From Candidatus Multivoradales bacterium (GTDB lineage Bacteria; Acidobacteriota; Thermoanaerobaculia; Multivoradales; JAHEKO01), in contig CBDCVR010000014.1 of assembly GCA_965223155.1 (NCBI GenBank), positions 672,001 to 736,000 of the forward strand: a DNA stretch of 64,000 nucleotides, written 5' to 3'. The notes under the pieces are model-generated. The model did no database searches. It was not told where the DNA came from and saw nothing but the letters and a program-made list of their open reading frames with translations. Shown piece after piece: positions 49,055 to 54,747 of this stretch. The stretch's first letter is position 1. Each line of letters starts with the position of its first letter. Both the position numbers and the translations under genes were made by a program.

Positions 49055-49237
49055 TGACCTTGCTGTCGTGACTAGTGTACAGTTCGCCGCATCGAGCCAT
49101 GGGTCCGCGACGGAATCGACTGTGTCGTTTCAGTCGAAGTTTGCCTGTGGCTCTAAGCATAGTGTGTCCGCGGAATTCCCGAACGGCCATGAGGCCAATC
49201 GGGGATTCCAACTAACCACAACCAAGGAGGTTTGTGT

Positions 49238-52204
49238 ATGAGAAACAGCGTCTTACGCAAGCTGATTGTCTTGGGTGTCGTCGCCGTCCTGGGTGCCGCG
49301 GGTTTCGCGGTTGCTCAGGAGGAGACCGGTAACGTTTACGTCGTTGCCAGCGATACCGATGGCAACCGGCTACCGGGCGTGACGACGACTCTGGACTGCG
49401 GCGCTGGCGCCCAGGTCCAGATCACCGACGGTCAGGGGCAAGCTCGCTTCCTGGCGATCGACCCGGGCAATTGTCAGCTGACGCTCCAACTGGATGGCTT
49501 CGGTACCGTTGAGTACCCGGCCGTCAACGTTCGTGTTGCGCGCAACACCAACGTCGAGGCGACGCTTTCCGCCGCCGTGACGGAGACCATCACGGTCACG
49601 TCTGAGAGTCCTCTTCTCGATGAGAAGAAGATCGGCGCGGGTACGACGATCTCGCAGGTCGAGCTGGAGAAGATCCCGACCGCTCGTGATCCCTGGTCGG
49701 TACTTTCCCAGACCCCGGGCGTCATGGTCGATCGCATCAACGTCGGCGGCAACGAAAGTGGCCAGCAGTCGACGTTCACCGGTCCCGGCGTGTCGGACGA
49801 TGAGAACGCCTTCCTCGTGGATGGCGTCGAGATCACCGACATGGCGGCCGTTGGCGCTTCCTCGACCTACTACGACTTCGACCAGTTCACCGAGATGCAG
49901 TTCTCGACGGGTGGCACCGACGTCACCAAGTCGGCGGCCGGCGTTTCGGTCAACCTGGTGACGAAGCGTGGCACCAACGAGTTCCGCGGTTCGGCCCGCA
50001 TCCTGCGCACCGACTCGAACGCGTTCGACGTCTTCACCCAGACGATCAACGTGCTGGAGTCCGGCAACGCGGACCTGGCCGACAACCAGTCGGGCTTCGT
50101 CGGCAACAGCATTCGCCAGATCACGGAATACGGCCTCGAGGCCGGTGGTCCGGTGATGCGCGACAAGCTCTGGTTCTGGGGCTCGTTTGGCAACAACGAC
50201 ATCCGCAACCGCACCGGCGGCCGCACCCTGGCTGACGTCCAGAGCGACGACACCGTGCTCGAGAACACCGCGTTCAAGTTCAACGCGTCGCTTTCGGGCT
50301 CGAACTCGGCTCAGGGTTCGTGGAACAACGGTGACAAGCAGAAGTTCGGCCGGAACGCCAGCCCGACCCGCCCCCAGGCCACGGCCTGGAACCAGCGTGG
50401 TCCCTCGGCGATCATCAAGTTCGAAGACACCCACGTCTTCAGCTCGAACTTCTTCCTCGGCGGCACCTGGGCGAAGGTGGACGGCGGCTTCGGCCTGACC
50501 TGCATCGCCTGCGCCGGCGCCGGCAGCCTCGAGGCCACGCCCGAGACTTCCTGGACCGCCGATGGTGTCTGGCAGAACAGCTTCCTCTCGGGGAACTCGA
50601 GCCGTCCGTCGGAAGAGATCAAGGTTGACGGTAACTACTTCTTCAACACCGGTTCGACCAACCACGAGATCAAGTTCGGCGCTCGCGAGCGCAACTTCGA
50701 GACCGTGAGTAACTTCAACTGGGCCGGCCGCGACATCTTCGTCGTCGACCTCGGCCTGTTCGGCGTTCCGGGTAACACCGAGTACGTGGTCGCCCACCGT
50801 GGCGCGACGCCTCTGATCTCGCAGGACTACACGTCCTTCTGGGCTCAGGACACGATCAGCGCCGGTGACTGGACGGTCAACGTCGGTTTCCGTTGGGATC
50901 AGCAGGAGGGCTTCAACGAGGCCTTCTCGATTCCGGCGAACCCCGCGTTCCCGGATCTGCTTCCGGCTCTGTCGATCAACGGCATCGATCCTGGTTTCGA
51001 CTGGGACACGATCTCGCCGCGTATCGGCGTGACCTACGCTCTGGGTGAGGAGAACAAGACTCTCCTCCGGGCGAGCTTCGCTCAGTTCCCCGAGCAGCTG
51101 TCGACCGGCAACATCCAGCAGGTCAACCCGCTGGGTGACGCCTACGCCTACCTGGTCTACGACGACGCCAATGGCGACCTCGTCTACCAGGAAGGTGAGA
51201 CCATCCTCGGTCTCGACGGTGCCACCAACTTCGATCCGTCGAACCCTGGTTCCACGGTCAGCCCGAACCGGACCGACCCGAATCTGGATCCGTCGATCAC
51301 CGACGAGATCCTGCTTTCGGTCGAGCACGCGTTCCTGCCCGAGTTCGTGGCCGGATTCAACGTCACGCTGCGTAACACCAGCGACCTGCTCTCCGCTGAG
51401 CGCGAGATCATCGTCGATCCGGTTACCGGTCAGACCCGTGTCACCACGGCGGCTGATTTCGTCCAGGACGGCACGGTCAGCGGCACGCTGCCCGATGGCT
51501 CGACCTACAACGAGCCGGTCTTCGCGATCTTCTGTGGCAGTGCCTGCCGTACCGGCGGTTCGCTCCTCGAGAACACCGACCGCGAGGTCGAGTACGAGGG
51601 CTTCGGCGTCAACTTCATCAAGCGCCTGTCCAACCGCTGGATGCTCCGTGGCTACTTCAACTTCGGCGAAGGTGAGTACAGCCTCGGCAACTCCTACGTC
51701 GCGAACTACGACCCGAACAACGGTGAGGGTGGATTCGACGACGCGGGTGGTCTCTTTGCGGTCCAGGCTGCCGGTTCCGGTGCCAAGCAGGACGTGTTCC
51801 TCCAGAGCTCGTACCAGTGGAACCTGAACGGCATGTACCAGGTCGCTCCCGACCGTCCGTGGGGCTTCAACGTCGCGGCCAATCTCTTTGGTCGTGAAGG
51901 CACCCCGCTGCCGTACTACCACCGGGCTCGCCAGTCCGATGGCATCCGGCGCGACATTCAGGTCACGAGCGGTATCGACTCGTTCCGTTCGGACGACGTC
52001 AACACCGTCGACCTGCGGCTCGAGAAGGAGTTCGCAGCGACCGGAAACGTCGGGTTCACGGTCAGCATCGACGCCTTCAACCTGCTGGATGAGAGTTTCG
52101 TCCTGCAGCGGCGTCGTCAGACGAATACTTCGCAGTTCGACTGGGTCACCGAGACCCTGTCGCCGCGGATCTTCCGTCTGGGCGTCCGCCTGAACTGGCG
52201 GTAA
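49238..52204 (+). CDS. TonB-dependent receptor (Oar-like: carboxypeptidase-regulatory-like domain, plug, beta-barrel)
   Basis: AAGGAGG SD; signal peptide; LPGVT, ETITVTSESPLLD, IPTARDPW, NLVTKRGTNEFRGS, SPRIGVTYAL and PRIFRLGVRLNW. Confidence 0.9.
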   Translation: MRNSVLRKLIVLGVVAVLGAAGFAVAQEETGNVYVVASDTDGNRLPGVTTTLDCGAGAQVQITDGQGQARFLAIDPGNCQLTLQLDGFGTVEYPAVNVRVARNTNVEATLSAAVTETITVTSESPLLDEKKIGAGTTISQVELEKIPTARDPWSVLSQTPGVMVDRINVGGNESGQQSTFTGPGVSDDENAFLVDGVEITDMAAVGASSTYYDFDQFTEMQFSTGGTDVTKSAAGVSVNLVTKRGTNEFRGSARILRTDSNAFDVFTQTINVLESGNADLADNQSGFVGNSIRQITEYGLEAGGPVMRDKLWFWGSFGNNDIRNRTGGRTLADVQSDDTVLENTAFKFNASLSGSNSAQGSWNNGDKQKFGRNASPTRPQATAWNQRGPSAIIKFEDTHVFSSNFFLGGTWAKVDGGFGLTCIACAGAGSLEATPETSWTADGVWQNSFLSGNSSRPSEEIKVDGNYFFNTGSTNHEIKFGARERNFETVSNFNWAGRDIFVVDLGLFGVPGNTEYVVAHRGATPLISQDYTSFWAQDTISAGDWTVNVGFRWDQQEGFNEAFSIPANPAFPDLLPALSINGIDPGFDWDTISPRIGVTYALGEENKTLLRASFAQFPEQLSTGNIQQVNPLGDAYAYLVYDDANGDLVYQEGETILGLDGATNFDPSNPGSTVSPNRTDPNLDPSITDEILLSVEHAFLPEFVAGFNVTLRNTSDLLSAEREIIVDPVTGQTRVTTAADFVQDGTVSGTLPDGSTYNEPVFAIFCGSACRTGGSLLENTDREVEYEGFGVNFIKRLSNRWMLRGYFNFGEGEYSLGNSYVANYDPNNGEGGFDDAGGLFAVQAAGSGAKQDVFLQSSYQWNLNGMYQVAPDRPWGFNVAANLFGREGTPLPYYHRARQSDGIRRDIQVTSGIDSFRSDDVNTVDLRLEKEFAATGNVGFTVSIDAFNLLDESFVLQRRRQTNTSQFDWVTETLSPRIFRLGVRLNWR

Positions 52205-52228
52205 GCCGAACCTCAATCTTTGAGGTCC

Positions 52229-52262
52229 AAGGGCCGGGGGGCAACCCCCGGTCCTTTTTTTT
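52229..52262 (+). terminator. Rho-independent terminator after the TonB-dependent receptor
   Basis: AAGGGCCGGGGG-GCAA-CCCCCGGTCCTT followed by a T-run. Confidence 0.85.
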
Positions 52263-52310
52263 ATGCCGGCGCACCAGAGGCAAGCGCCCGCGCCACGAGG
52301 CCCGGACGTT

Positions 52311-52788
52311 CGGCCGGCGGGAGCGCCGGGGGACGGCGGCCGCCAGGAGGCTTGCGACGACTCGGCGTCCGCCTGCACGCGGCTACGCGCAAGCCAATGA
52401 GAGTTCCTGAACCTTGGTTCCTAGCGCTTGCCGCGAGCCCCCGGATGTCCTGCCGGCTTCGGTCCTGAAGCGACTCTGAAGCCACGGTATCGGGAAGCGA
52501 AACGGCTCGCGGCCCTCCGACGACTCCAGGAGCCAAAGCGGTAGACCTTGAACGAGCCCGGCGGGAGTGATTGCCCTGGAACGACCCACAAGAAGGCCGT
52601 CCCCATGAGGCGGCAGAGCTGAGACTGAGGAGCGGGCGGTGGTTGTGCGGGGCTCGGACCGAGCGCCCGGAACCACGAACTGAGGCCCCTCTCGAGCCGG
52701 TGCGAAGGTCGGCGCAGGGCCGCGTCCACCACTCCAGAGGCCTCCCAGCGCGGCCCGTCCCGCACGGCACCGTCCGCTCCCAGCCGAC
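52311..52788 (+). repeat. ~480-nt non-coding direct repeat, copy 1 (candidate structured RNA)
   Basis: Aligns by eye with 52891-53370 (offset 579-582); the central ~230 nt differ at only 4 positions. Confidence 0.9.
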
Positions 52789-52890
52789 AAGGAGGCGGGC
52801 CCGGCCTTCATCCCCGAGGACCGGAGCAGACAACAGACGCGGGAGACCCTTCGGCCGAACTCCGCACGTCCGATCCGTTGGGCGGGCCTC

Positions 52891-53370
52891 CGGCCGGCGA
52901 GAGCGCCGAGGGACGGCGGCCGCTAGGAGACTTGCGAGGACTGGCGTCCGCCTGCACGCGGCTTCGCGCAAGCCAGTGAGGGCTTCCGGAACATTGATTC
53001 CGAGCGCTTGCCGCGAAGCCCCCCGGACGTCCTGCCGGCCTCGCTCCTGAAGCGACTCTGAAACCGCGGTATCAGGAAGCGAAACGGCTCGCGGCCCTCC
53101 GACGACTCCAGGAGCCAAAGCGGTTGACCTTGAACGAGCCCGGCGGGAGTGATTGCCCTGGAACGACCCACAAGAAGGCCGTCGCCATGAGGCGGCAGAG
53201 CTGAGGCTGAGGAGCGGGCGGTGGTTGTGCGGGGCTCGGACCGAGCGCCCGGAACCACGAACGGAGGCCCCTCTCGAGCCGGTGCGAAGGTCGGCGCAGG
53301 GCCGCGCCTACCAACTCGGAGGCCGAACAGCGCGGCCCGTCCCACACGGCACCGCCCGCTCCCGGCCGGC
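52891..53370 (+). repeat. ~480-nt non-coding direct repeat, copy 2 (candidate structured RNA)
   Basis: Diverged copy of 52311-52788 with 1-2 nt indels and conserved stems. Confidence 0.9.
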
Positions 53371-53513
53371 ACGGAGAAACGAGTACAAGGTCCTTGGAGC
53401 CGAGGACGGCAGCGACAAAACCGCACCGTCTTCCGAGGCGATCGAGAGGAAGTCGAAGCGTCGTCCTAAGATGCGCCGTGCCTGCCAGCCTGACCATGCC
53501 CCCGCGCCACGCC

Positions 53514-53530
53514 CTGGCTTTCTTCTTGCA
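53514..53530 (+). promoter_or_regulatory. Putative sigma-54 (-24/-12) promoter
   Basis: CTGGCTTTCTTCTTGCA has GG-N10-GC spacing, ~87 nt upstream of ATG 53617. Confidence 0.45.
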
Positions 53531-53616
53531 AAAAGGCCCTGTAGTAGACTCGCGAAAGGCGTTCCGACGCCTTTTGCTCACAAGTTTCGACAAGGTTTTT
53601 CCAGGAGGGAAAGAGG

Positions 53617-54747
53617 ATGTCTCGCAAGCAATTCGCCAGTCTGGCGGTGGTCGCGGTAGCCAGCTTGGCGGTCGCGTCGGCGCCGGTTTTCGCGCAGTCT
53701 TGGGCAGGGAAAGGGCGTGCATTCGGTTCGGTCAAAGACGACAAGGGCAACCCGATCGAGGGCGCCCGCATTCAGATGTACAAAGACGCCGAGGGCAACG
53801 GCCCGGGGCCCAAGTACACGGACAAGAAGGGCAAGTTCGGCTTCGGCGGCCTGGGCGGCGGTCTCTGGACCGTGCTCATCGACGCCGACGGCTACAAGCC
53901 CTCTCAAGGCGCGTACGCGGTCAACGAGTTCCAAGCCGGCAAGCCGGTCCAGATCGTTCTGGTTCCAGATCCCTTCGGCGTCATCTCGGTGGGCGACGGC
54001 CTGCTCGAGGAGAAGAAGTACGCCGAGGCGCGGGCGGCCTACGAGAACGCGCTGGCCCAGCTTCCCGAGGAGCAGGCGGCAAGGCTTCGCTCCCGCATCG
54101 GCGACACCTATCTCGAGGAGGGCAATGCCGAGGCGGCCCGAGCCGAGTACCTGAAATCGCTCCCTCTGATTCCTGAGGCCGAACAGGCTCATATCCGCCT
54201 CCAGCTCGCCAAGACCTACGAGTTCGAGAACAACAACGAGGCGGTTCGCGGCGAGCTCGAAAAAGTCCTCGAGATCCTGGACCCGGCGGCGCAGGGTCAG
54301 GTGCTCCTGATGATGGCGCGCTCGTTCGACAGCGACGGCCAGACCGACAAGGCCATCGAGACCCTTCAGCGCGCCCTGGAACTGGATCCCGAGAACGTCC
54401 AGCTGCTGCAGATCACCGCCGACTTTCTGACGCGTACCGGCCGCGAGGACGAGGCCCGCGAGTACCTCGCGCGCCTTCCGGAAGACGTCACGCTGCCGGC
54501 CGACATGGTGCTCAACATCGGCATCCGGCTCTACAACGAAGGCGACGTGGACAAGGCATTCGGCTACTTCAACCGGGCCGTGGACGAGAATCCGAGCCTG
54601 GCCGAGGCGTACTACTACCGGGGTCTGGTCAACCTCAACCGCAACCAGACCGAAGAGGCAAAGGCCGACTTCGGCAAGCTGCTCGAGCTCGATCCCGAGT
54701 CCGCGCACGCGGCGGAAGTGAACGAGTTTCTCAAGTATCTCAACTAG
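53617..54747 (+). CDS. Secreted carboxypeptidase-regulatory-like domain + TPR protein
   Basis: Signal peptide ending VFA-QSWAGKGR; GSVKDDKGNPIEGA, TDKKGKF; TPRs. Confidence 0.85.
   Translation: MSRKQFASLAVVAVASLAVASAPVFAQSWAGKGRAFGSVKDDKGNPIEGARIQMYKDAEGNGPGPKYTDKKGKFGFGGLGGGLWTVLIDADGYKPSQGAYAVNEFQAGKPVQIVLVPDPFGVISVGDGLLEEKKYAEARAAYENALAQLPEEQAARLRSRIGDTYLEEGNAEAARAEYLKSLPLIPEAEQAHIRLQLAKTYEFENNNEAVRGELEKVLEILDPAAQGQVLLMMARSFDSDGQTDKAIETLQRALELDPENVQLLQITADFLTRTGREDEAREYLARLPEDVTLPADMVLNIGIRLYNEGDVDKAFGYFNRAVDENPSLAEAYYYRGLVNLNRNQTEEAKADFGKLLELDPESAHAAEVNEFLKYLN

Follow-up and report, generated by a model that had tools for sequence, protein, structure and literature searches.

The intergenic region described here lies in a stretch of 64,000 nucleotides (nt), referred to as the window, from the genome of a Candidatus Multivoradales bacterium (Acidobacteriota; Thermoanaerobaculia), namely positions 672,001 to 736,000 of contig CBDCVR010000014.1; coordinates without a contig name are positions in this window. 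The region holds a tandem pair of non-coding copies, which the initial annotation had read as a candidate large structured non-coding RNA (ncRNA) of about 480 nt, or else as a non-autonomous mobile repeat. Our verdict is that an inverted dimer, duplicated in tandem, makes up the locus, and that its units belong to a new family of structured repeats, similar to MITEs (miniature transposable elements with inverted repeats) and repetitive extragenic palindromic (REP) sequences. The genome of the window is denoted G000 and its contigs C13, C14, C15 and so on, while G001, G002, G003 and G004 are congeners. Upstream of the pair, on the + strand, is a gene for a TonB-dependent-type outer-membrane receptor of 990 amino acids (49232..52204; Pfam CarboxypepD_reg, Plug and OMP_b-brl_4; G+C by codon phase 0.59/0.46/0.84). 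It is followed on the same strand by its intrinsic terminator (52229..52264), in which a G+C-rich 12-bp stem at 52229-52256 precedes T8. Downstream, also on the + strand, is a gene for a secreted protein of 376 amino acids with Pfam CarboxypepD_reg and TPR domains (53617..54747; codon-phase G+C 0.69/0.39/0.85), with a conserved block in front of it (53493..53616, +) that may act as promoter or leader.

The pair had been placed between the receptor terminator and the next promoter. The first boundary holds, but for the second a consensus promoter scan returned 0 promoter-like sites and did not call the block at 53493..53616; what stands there is only a block conserved with G001. The stretch 53493-53800 is 62.5% identical to the region upstream of the orthologous gene in G001, and the two have a TTGCAA ... 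TAGACT hexamer pair in common. These hexamers are only 12-13 nt apart, which is too short for a standard sigma-70 promoter. At the receptor terminator, Rfam gave sub-threshold, terminator-like matches only, among them one to the small RNA family BjrC68 over 52202-52264 (26.3 bits against a gathering score of 39), which rests solely on the terminator hairpin. The orthologous locus in G001 retains the receptor, the terminator, the conserved upstream block and the downstream gene. Its intergenic region consists of about 1.7 kb of other DNA with an IS110-like C-terminal fragment, REP-like hairpins and one diverged copy of the repeat described below. In G003, the receptor is 64% identical and the downstream open reading frame (ORF) is only about 60 nt away; this pair of genes may be a paralogue.

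That the locus carries two non-coding copies with small indels was correctly seen. A gapped local alignment of 52303-52833 with 52883-53418 gives 88.3% identity over 538 columns, and a repeat finder returned four ungapped blocks common to both copies (of 300, 60, 38 and 39 nt, with identities of 95%, 87%, 95% and 85%, respectively), whose start-to-start spacings are 582, 580, 579 and 580 nt; the copies therefore differ by indels of 1-3 nt. Tandem Repeats Finder, run with a longest period of 500, did not list the pair. A covariance model built from an alignment of 16 arms, here called R1, matches the window four times in the strand order + - + -, and each copy is thus resolved into two inverted modules of about 175 nt around an unrelated spacer of about 160 nt. 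Module 1 is the 5' arm of copy 1 (52293..52464, +, sense to the upstream gene; R1 120.6 bits), with an outer stem that extends by alignment to about 52478. Spacer 1 (52465..52624) is unique sequence of lower G+C (0.64) and is 96% identical to spacer 2 (53047..53206). Module 2, the inverted 3' arm of copy 1, occupies 52625..52800 on the - strand (119.2 bits). The junction of the tandem copies follows at 52801..52872; similarity between the copies ends at about 52833/53418, and the stretch past the 3' arm is 49% identical. Copy 2 consists of module 3 (5' arm, 52873..53046, +; 115.6 bits), which has an A-C mismatch in its helix P1 (GAGGG versus CCCCC), spacer 2, and the inverted module 4 (3' arm, 53207..53386, -; 117.4 bits).

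The junction is bridged, over 52743-53104, by short-read contigs of runs X1 and X2 with 0 differences. All four runs compared consist of contigs, come from one study and represent two samples at most; the genome itself was probably derived from these samples, so the runs are not independent, and the bridging indicates no more than that the reads contain the tandem arrangement. Low-depth contigs of runs X1 and X4 carry variants, with 52218 joined to 52311 (92 nt skipped) and 52442 joined to 52567 with 38 other letters between them. Both joins probably reflect other versions of the element present in those samples, either paralogous or from related strains.

The unit that is conserved, and that folds, is the module. 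RNAalifold applied to model-independent MAFFT alignments gives a Y shape made of three outer stem segments, a junction-closing helix P1, a P2 hairpin and a P3-P4 hairpin. In module 1, the helices lie at 52328-32/52438-42 (P1), 52335-45/52362-73 (P2), 52375-83/52430-37 (P3) and 52387-90/52424-27 (P4). Two-sided changes occur in 11 of 25 pairs of the MAFFT-only alignment of the 16 arms, and in 14 of 42 pairs when 33 full-length copies are aligned in the same way. In a model-fitted alignment of 81 matches (79 distinct) the count is 20 of 25, and 91.9% of the cells are paired against 81.1% in column shuffles (0/500 reach the observed value) and 31-58% when the partners are slid; as the copies are related and the fitting favours the structure, these figures overstate independence. 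The pairing is almost purely Watson-Crick. The 22 solid pairs comprise about 1700 cells of Watson-Crick type, against 6 G-U and 20 A-C, and a hand count of pair types in the 33-copy MAFFT alignment gave about 15 G-U versus 21 A-C, that is, no strand preference. The + strand preference that had been ascribed to G-U-compatible changes between the two copies finds no counterpart in the family. Watson-Crick-only pairing argues for a constraint acting on both strands or on the DNA, and not on one RNA strand. The junction nucleotides are conserved as well.

Most of the individual stems named by the initial annotation are real, and the strong covariation belongs to the module and not to the unit of about 480 nt. 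The 13-nt stem in module 4 is perfect (53211-53223 with 53350-53362, complementary at 13/13), and 52629-52641 in module 2 matches the same arm; its partner at 52768-52780 has one base changed, leaving one G-U pair on the + strand. TCCTGA pairs with TCGGGA in copy 1 (52463-68 with 52490-95) and with TCAGGA in copy 2 (53045-50 with 53072-77), and the GGGCCGCG/CGCGGCCC stem is helix P2 of the inverted arm. The CTTGCG/CGCAAG stem fared less well. It is perfect in the 5' arms of this genome only; among the 81 family members its pairs are Watson-Crick in 15 to 67 members each, and it was rejected as a family-wide stem.

Additional copies in G000 were detected by a relaxed blastn search of the region against the whole genome. 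It returned a third copy of the element (C13:1024200-1024637), a fragment (C14:1325078-1325225) and weak matches to C13:1077500-1078270, where the element's 5' and 3' parts align to opposite strands of the same DNA; the 3' arm is therefore an inverted relative of the 5' arm. Once the 3' arm is reverse-complemented, both arms match the same unit there and also the same units in G002. A single-sequence nhmmer search found close copies only, and relaxed blastn and the covariance model were needed for the rest. R1 finds ten matches of 112-130 bits in G000, four in the window, two in the third copy and four in an array on C13, as well as a weaker match of 62 bits on C15 and a 42-bit fragment. The C13 array (C13:1077484-1078262; locus L020:1484-2262) comprises four head-to-tail modules, 85-94% alike, with a period of about 200 nt. 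The space that it fills is bounded by the end of a + strand gene (1077358) on one side and by that of an rplQ-like - strand ORF (1078311) on the other, and all four modules are sense to this ORF. The third copy stands in a paralogous setting (locus L003, C13:1021018-1024640), where a receptor gene (C13:1021018-1024110; 86% protein identity to the upstream receptor) is followed by the same terminator and the same inverted dimer, here lacking 87 nt of the spacer and having 26 nt duplicated in tandem at its 5' end.

Comparison of these paralogous receptor loci reveals an uneven divergence. The arms are 92-96% identical, the third codon positions 73% and the spacer between stop codon and element 69%. 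In copy 1, the arms are nearer to the C13 copy than to copy 2, and the spacer is 96% identical to that of copy 2. This mosaic of arms and spacers suggests gene conversion, although selection might also have produced it. Apart from copy 2 and the partly deleted C13 version, the spacer of about 160 nt has no other copy in the genome, and three dimers in G002 and G003 have spacers to which it bears no relation.

The family extends well beyond this genome. Strong R1 matches (at least 112 bits) number 10 in G000, at least 60 in G002 (a lower bound, only 61 candidates having been scored), 42 in G001, 6 in G003 and 1 in G004. Matches occur in 25 of 45 genomes of the same family and, at E <= 1e-5, in 13 of 121 genomes of the order; within the order but outside the own family they are found in families f3 (1/8 genomes), f7 (1/15) and f10 (2/10). 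A phylum-wide sample yielded 3 of 151 genomes with a match and 0 of 148 outside the family, and R1 therefore does not fire on G+C-rich acidobacterial DNA in general. A search for an exact two-block pattern, with one genome per species, returned 23 stretches, all of them from Thermoanaerobaculia, Acidobacteria or Acidobacteriota metagenome-assembled genomes, and plasmid and phage collections gave no module match. Within the genomes searched, no copy of the repeat falls outside a single order of Thermoanaerobaculia. Copies are intergenic, and many matches abut contig ends. G002 contains the unit of about 170 nt as solo copies plus one inverted pair of about 500 nt, which aligns to the window copy in both orientations; dimers of the same facing arrangement (-> <-) occur in G002 (L016, L159) and G003 (L024), with unrelated spacers of 121-168 nt. 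All 40 fetched G001 and G002 copies are solo within +-400 nt. Mean identity among the copies of one genome is 81% in G001 and 71% in G002 while pairing is kept, so that divergence is concentrated in loops and compensated stems. A literature search, which was limited and is not proof of novelty, found no paper on such repeats in Thermoanaerobaculia; the module family appears not to have been described previously.

The ends of the repeat are sharp. When the 40 flanked copies from G001 and G002 were aligned, similarity was lost abruptly outside a 10-nt terminal inverted repeat, GCGCGTCGGC ... GCCGACGCGC, and the full element is therefore about 195 nt long. In the window's own copies these terminal inverted repeats are degenerate. 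The right flank often begins with a CCTCG-like pentamer and a local hairpin; the pentamer may be part of the element or a preferred target. For 6 of the 40 loci both flanks are syntenic in G000, and in 6/6 of these the gap in G000, shorter by 206-470 nt, lacks an R1 match. This synteny test is coarse, and deletion remains an alternative to insertion.

Several further features were observed around the modules of the congeners. Four G001 loci (L081, L082, L087 and L099) share an extra conserved block of about 60 nt ending 12-14 nt upstream of the 5' end of the module, which may mark either a third family of repeats or a subfamily of greater length. One 25-nt insertion in the outer stem is common to L093 and L099. 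A second, short REP-like repeat, consisting of a 9-bp GGGGACACC stem with a 7-nt loop followed by TCCCGACT, recurs beside modules in G001 (L051 and L054, the orthologue of the window's intergenic region) and in G002 (L060, L067, L071 and L077). In G001, this short repeat, in both loop orientations, brackets the insert of about 1.7 kb with the IS110-like fragment, while G000 has one loose match only.

A mobilising enzyme was sought among four families of insertion sequence (IS), transposase or nuclease: IS110, Y1, Y2/IS91 and TnpB. For IS110, R1 matches in 0 of 10 loci, and none of the 17 copies in G000 is within 25 kb of a module. These 17 copies (e.g., C13:303001, C14:566097 and C15:956526; none in the window) include 14 with an identical 364-amino-acid open frame and the same score, which suggests that the IS110-family IS has recently been active in G000; several small contigs (C2, C7 and C11) carry one. 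Y1 transposases number 1 in G000, 0 in G001, 4 in G002 and 2 in G003, and R1 matches in 0 of 7 of their loci. Y2/IS91 was found only in G002 and G003, being absent from G001, G000 and G146, and G001, with 42 or more modules, has neither a Y1 nor a Y2 match. TnpB was found in 0 of 5 genomes.

Taken together, the family is high-copy, sharp-ended, intergenic and variable between congeners, and its fold is kept by compensatory Watson-Crick changes. We put at roughly three in four the probability that the region is a cluster of four copies of a non-coding, hairpin-forming interspersed repeat of about 175-195 nt, which is probably mobile. The second option of the initial annotation, a non-autonomous mobile repeat, fits these properties, namely the high copy number, the interspersed distribution, the sharp ends with terminal inverted repeats and the variable presence at syntenic sites. 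As a single strand, the module folds into an imperfect outer stem of about 30 bp, whose ends are the 10-nt terminal inverted repeats, and this stem closes the three-way junction formed with P1, the P2 hairpin and the P3-P4 hairpin. On this basis, a plausible course of events can be sketched. Now or formerly, the module may have been a mobile element that spread without an enzyme of its own, its ends being recognised, as folded or symmetric DNA, by one acting in trans. Two modules in opposite orientation around some 160 nt of unrelated DNA make up a dimer of about 500 nt, which a tandem duplication of about 580 nt would then have doubled. In G000, the family would be old, and the clusters in which alone it survives would owe their uniformity to duplication and gene conversion. 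At this locus, behind a strong terminator, the modules presumably have no dedicated function, while elsewhere they would probably be co-transcribed as stable stem-loops in 3' untranslated regions (3'-UTRs).

A number of observations weigh against such a mobile repeat. Among the families searched (IS110, Y1, Y2/IS91 and TnpB) there is no cognate transposase, and no target-site duplication is visible at the 39 of 40 flanked copies that could be anchored for end analysis. Between species, the intergenic DNA has diverged too far for exact empty sites to be aligned, and insertion is therefore not formally distinguished from deletion. Copies that are 71-81% identical, yet have 92% of their pair cells paired, look more like the outcome of selection on the fold of every copy than of a recent burst decaying neutrally. 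Likewise, arms at 92-96% identity beside third codon positions at 73% need either purifying selection or gene conversion. Finally, the modules tend to be sense to the genes that they follow, which would also fit a role as RNA.

This last point leads to the rival that survives best, although we regard it as unlikely: that the module is primarily a functional RNA, a multiplied 3'-UTR stem-loop that would stabilise the mRNA, mark a site for processing or bind a protein, with two of the window copies sense and two antisense. The orientation data come from 52 modules, with genes called crudely as stop-to-stop ORFs having the codon-phase G+C of the genome. The 5' side of the module faces a gene 3' end in 30 cases and a 5' end in 9 (13 unassigned), whereas the 3' side faces a 3' end in 23 and a 5' end in 16. 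Within 250 nt of a stop codon, 23 module sides are sense and 8 antisense; for 23 of 31, the two-sided binomial p is about 0.01 by our own arithmetic. Such a bias fits either a role at mRNA 3' ends or strand-specific insertion, and the latter could equally give it since genes are co-oriented with replication. In favour of an RNA, the four-unit C13 array stands directly behind the rplQ-like gene in sense orientation, the fold and the junction nucleotides are conserved with divergence mostly in loops, and the arms are conserved far above neutral sites. However, structured RNAs normally tolerate G-U pairs, and the module is almost purely Watson-Crick without enrichment of sense-strand G-U in either count. 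There is no U-tract after the module stem, which is therefore not an intrinsic terminator. The window modules sit behind a strong terminator and half of them are antisense. Nor is there an association with a gene family: the 180 ORFs taken from 95 loci include no neighbour protein that is found at three or more separate places, and the largest clusters have three members, including re-fetches of the same place.

Another possibility, to which we assign only a minor share of our confidence, is that the module, instead of being a MITE in decay, is a structure-dependent element of a kind not yet described. Its three-way junction, folded from one strand and closed by the long stem, might be kept copy by copy by compensatory changes of a strictly Watson-Crick kind and recognised, in the manner of integron attC sites or IS200/IS605 ends, by an enzyme that leaves no target duplication; in addition or instead, it might have been domesticated across the order as an orientation-dependent module of mRNA 3' ends.

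Considerably less probable still is the idea that the modules are DNA-level sites of the host, bound by a nucleoid or topology protein or used for recombination, and maintained by the host instead of being selfish. The strand-symmetric, Watson-Crick-only constraint, the old and diverged copies with their structure kept and the lack of a transposase among the families searched would all agree with it. On the other hand, congeners carry anything from 1 to at least 60 copies, a range of about 60-fold, genomes with the module are scattered patchily over family and order, and copies are absent from 6/6 syntenic sites in G000. The tandem and inverted clustering is also typical of selfish repeats.

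The view of each copy as one large structured ncRNA gene, with which the locus first attracted attention, is already largely refuted and hardly credible now. It drew on a region that is indeed non-coding and on several stems kept between the copies, some of them through G-U-compatible + strand changes. The unit has turned out to combine a dispersed repeat, present twice in inverted orientation, with an unrelated spacer, which is partly deleted in the C13 copy, and the G001 orthologous site does not conserve it. As such, the unit of about 480 nt occurs only at this locus and at the paralogous locus in this genome. A whole copy of 501 nt folds no better than dinucleotide shuffles (z-scores of -0.02 on the + strand and -1.25 on the - strand). 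No promoter-like site was called in the scan, and no Rfam 15 family matches the element, either in the window with a cutoff of E <= 10 or in 12 module loci with one of E <= 0.1; the expectation that no known RNA family would be recognised was borne out in this respect. A single giant hairpin formed by both arms was considered and rejected, as the arms fold on themselves and the whole-unit z-scores are those just given.

A tandemly duplicated, decayed protein gene can be dismissed with near certainty: long open frames exist (e.g., 285 amino acids on the - strand, 52261-53118) but are usual in DNA of 70% G+C, none of 7 internal ORFs matches Pfam, G+C by codon phase is flat across the region (0.69/0.73/0.70, in contrast to both flanking genes), the copies differ by indels of 1-3 nt, and the module is present in both orientations and at dozens of intergenic sites.

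If the locus is best understood as a duplicated dimer of an interspersed repeat, a false lead is removed, since the candidate large ncRNA becomes a composite. Thermoanaerobaculia are known almost only from metagenome-assembled genomes, and for this class the present work provides a first description of a structured repeat family together with a working covariance model. The repeats break assemblies, as the many copies at contig ends illustrate, and inflate intergenic regions, and they will yield spurious ORFs and spurious calls of "novel ncRNA". A three-way junction with Watson-Crick-only covariation and no known transposase partner also makes the family a reasonable system in which to study the spread of repeats and their use by the host.

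With respect to known systems, large ncRNAs such as OLE, GOLLD, ROOL and HEARO resemble the locus in being non-coding regions of several hundred nt with conserved stems, but here Rfam 15 gives no match and the unit is a composite of a dispersed repeat. Of the features expected of a structured ncRNA, covariation was found, in the module and not in the 480-nt unit; a match to a curated family was not, and the context is not conserved either, with no recurrent neighbour and a different locus in G001. As regards guide-type RNAs, the partner of omega-type RNAs, TnpB, was found in 0/5 genomes, and the module is not beside a recombinase or nuclease gene as an IS110 bridge or seek RNA or a TnpB omega RNA would be (0/10 IS110 loci; TnpB in 0/5 genomes).

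Among repeats of the REP type, according to Di Nocera et al. (2013; PMC3733652), REPs are 20-40 nt long with stems of 5-13 bp and a GTAG or CGTC tag, and the class CGTC is without a dedicated transposase. As described there, REPs and BIMEs, like the module, are palindromic, lie mostly behind genes and often form inverted dimers able to fold into larger structures. REPINs are comparable in these respects. The module differs from REPs and REPINs in its size of 175-195 nt and in being branched, and, as opposed to REPIN-RAYT systems, it has no link to Y1 (0/7 loci, and none found in G001). The same paper reports TIRYT from Acidobacteria, long terminal-inverted-repeat families that flank tyrosine transposases; these share with the module the phylum and a moderate abundance of inverted-repeat families. 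Those repeats flank a Y1 gene, however, whereas 0 of 7 Y1 loci here carry the module, in a comparison made by description only. The ERIC/IRU elements of enterobacteria are likewise imperfect palindromes of at least 100 nt, located in transcribed intergenic regions, of unproven mobility and variable in copy number. They belong to another phylum. What is particular to the module is its Y-shaped core together with terminal inverted repeats of 10 nt; it is set apart from them by description and not by sequence.

A further parallel, drawn at the level of properties, is with the Correia/NEMIS MITEs of Neisseria, which are also non-coding, 100-200 nt long, bounded by terminal inverted repeats, present in dozens of intergenic copies, variably present between relatives and able to form long hairpins when transcribed. 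In keeping with MITEs in general, the module copies are small, non-coding and dispersed, have terminal inverted repeats with sharp ends, and exhibit insertion polymorphism as judged by the coarse synteny test. Among the families searched, no autonomous partner with the same ends was found, neither at IS110 (0/10) nor at Y1 loci (0/7), Y2 and TnpB being absent from G001, G000 and G146. In contrast to Correia/NEMIS elements, the module has no visible target-site duplication and no parent IS with the same ends at the Y1 and IS110 loci, its copies are 71-81% alike and not near-identical, and its interior is a conserved three-way junction with compensatory changes, beyond the mere pairing of ends. 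It is this branched, covarying core that is unusual for a repeat of either the MITE or the REP/ERIC kind.

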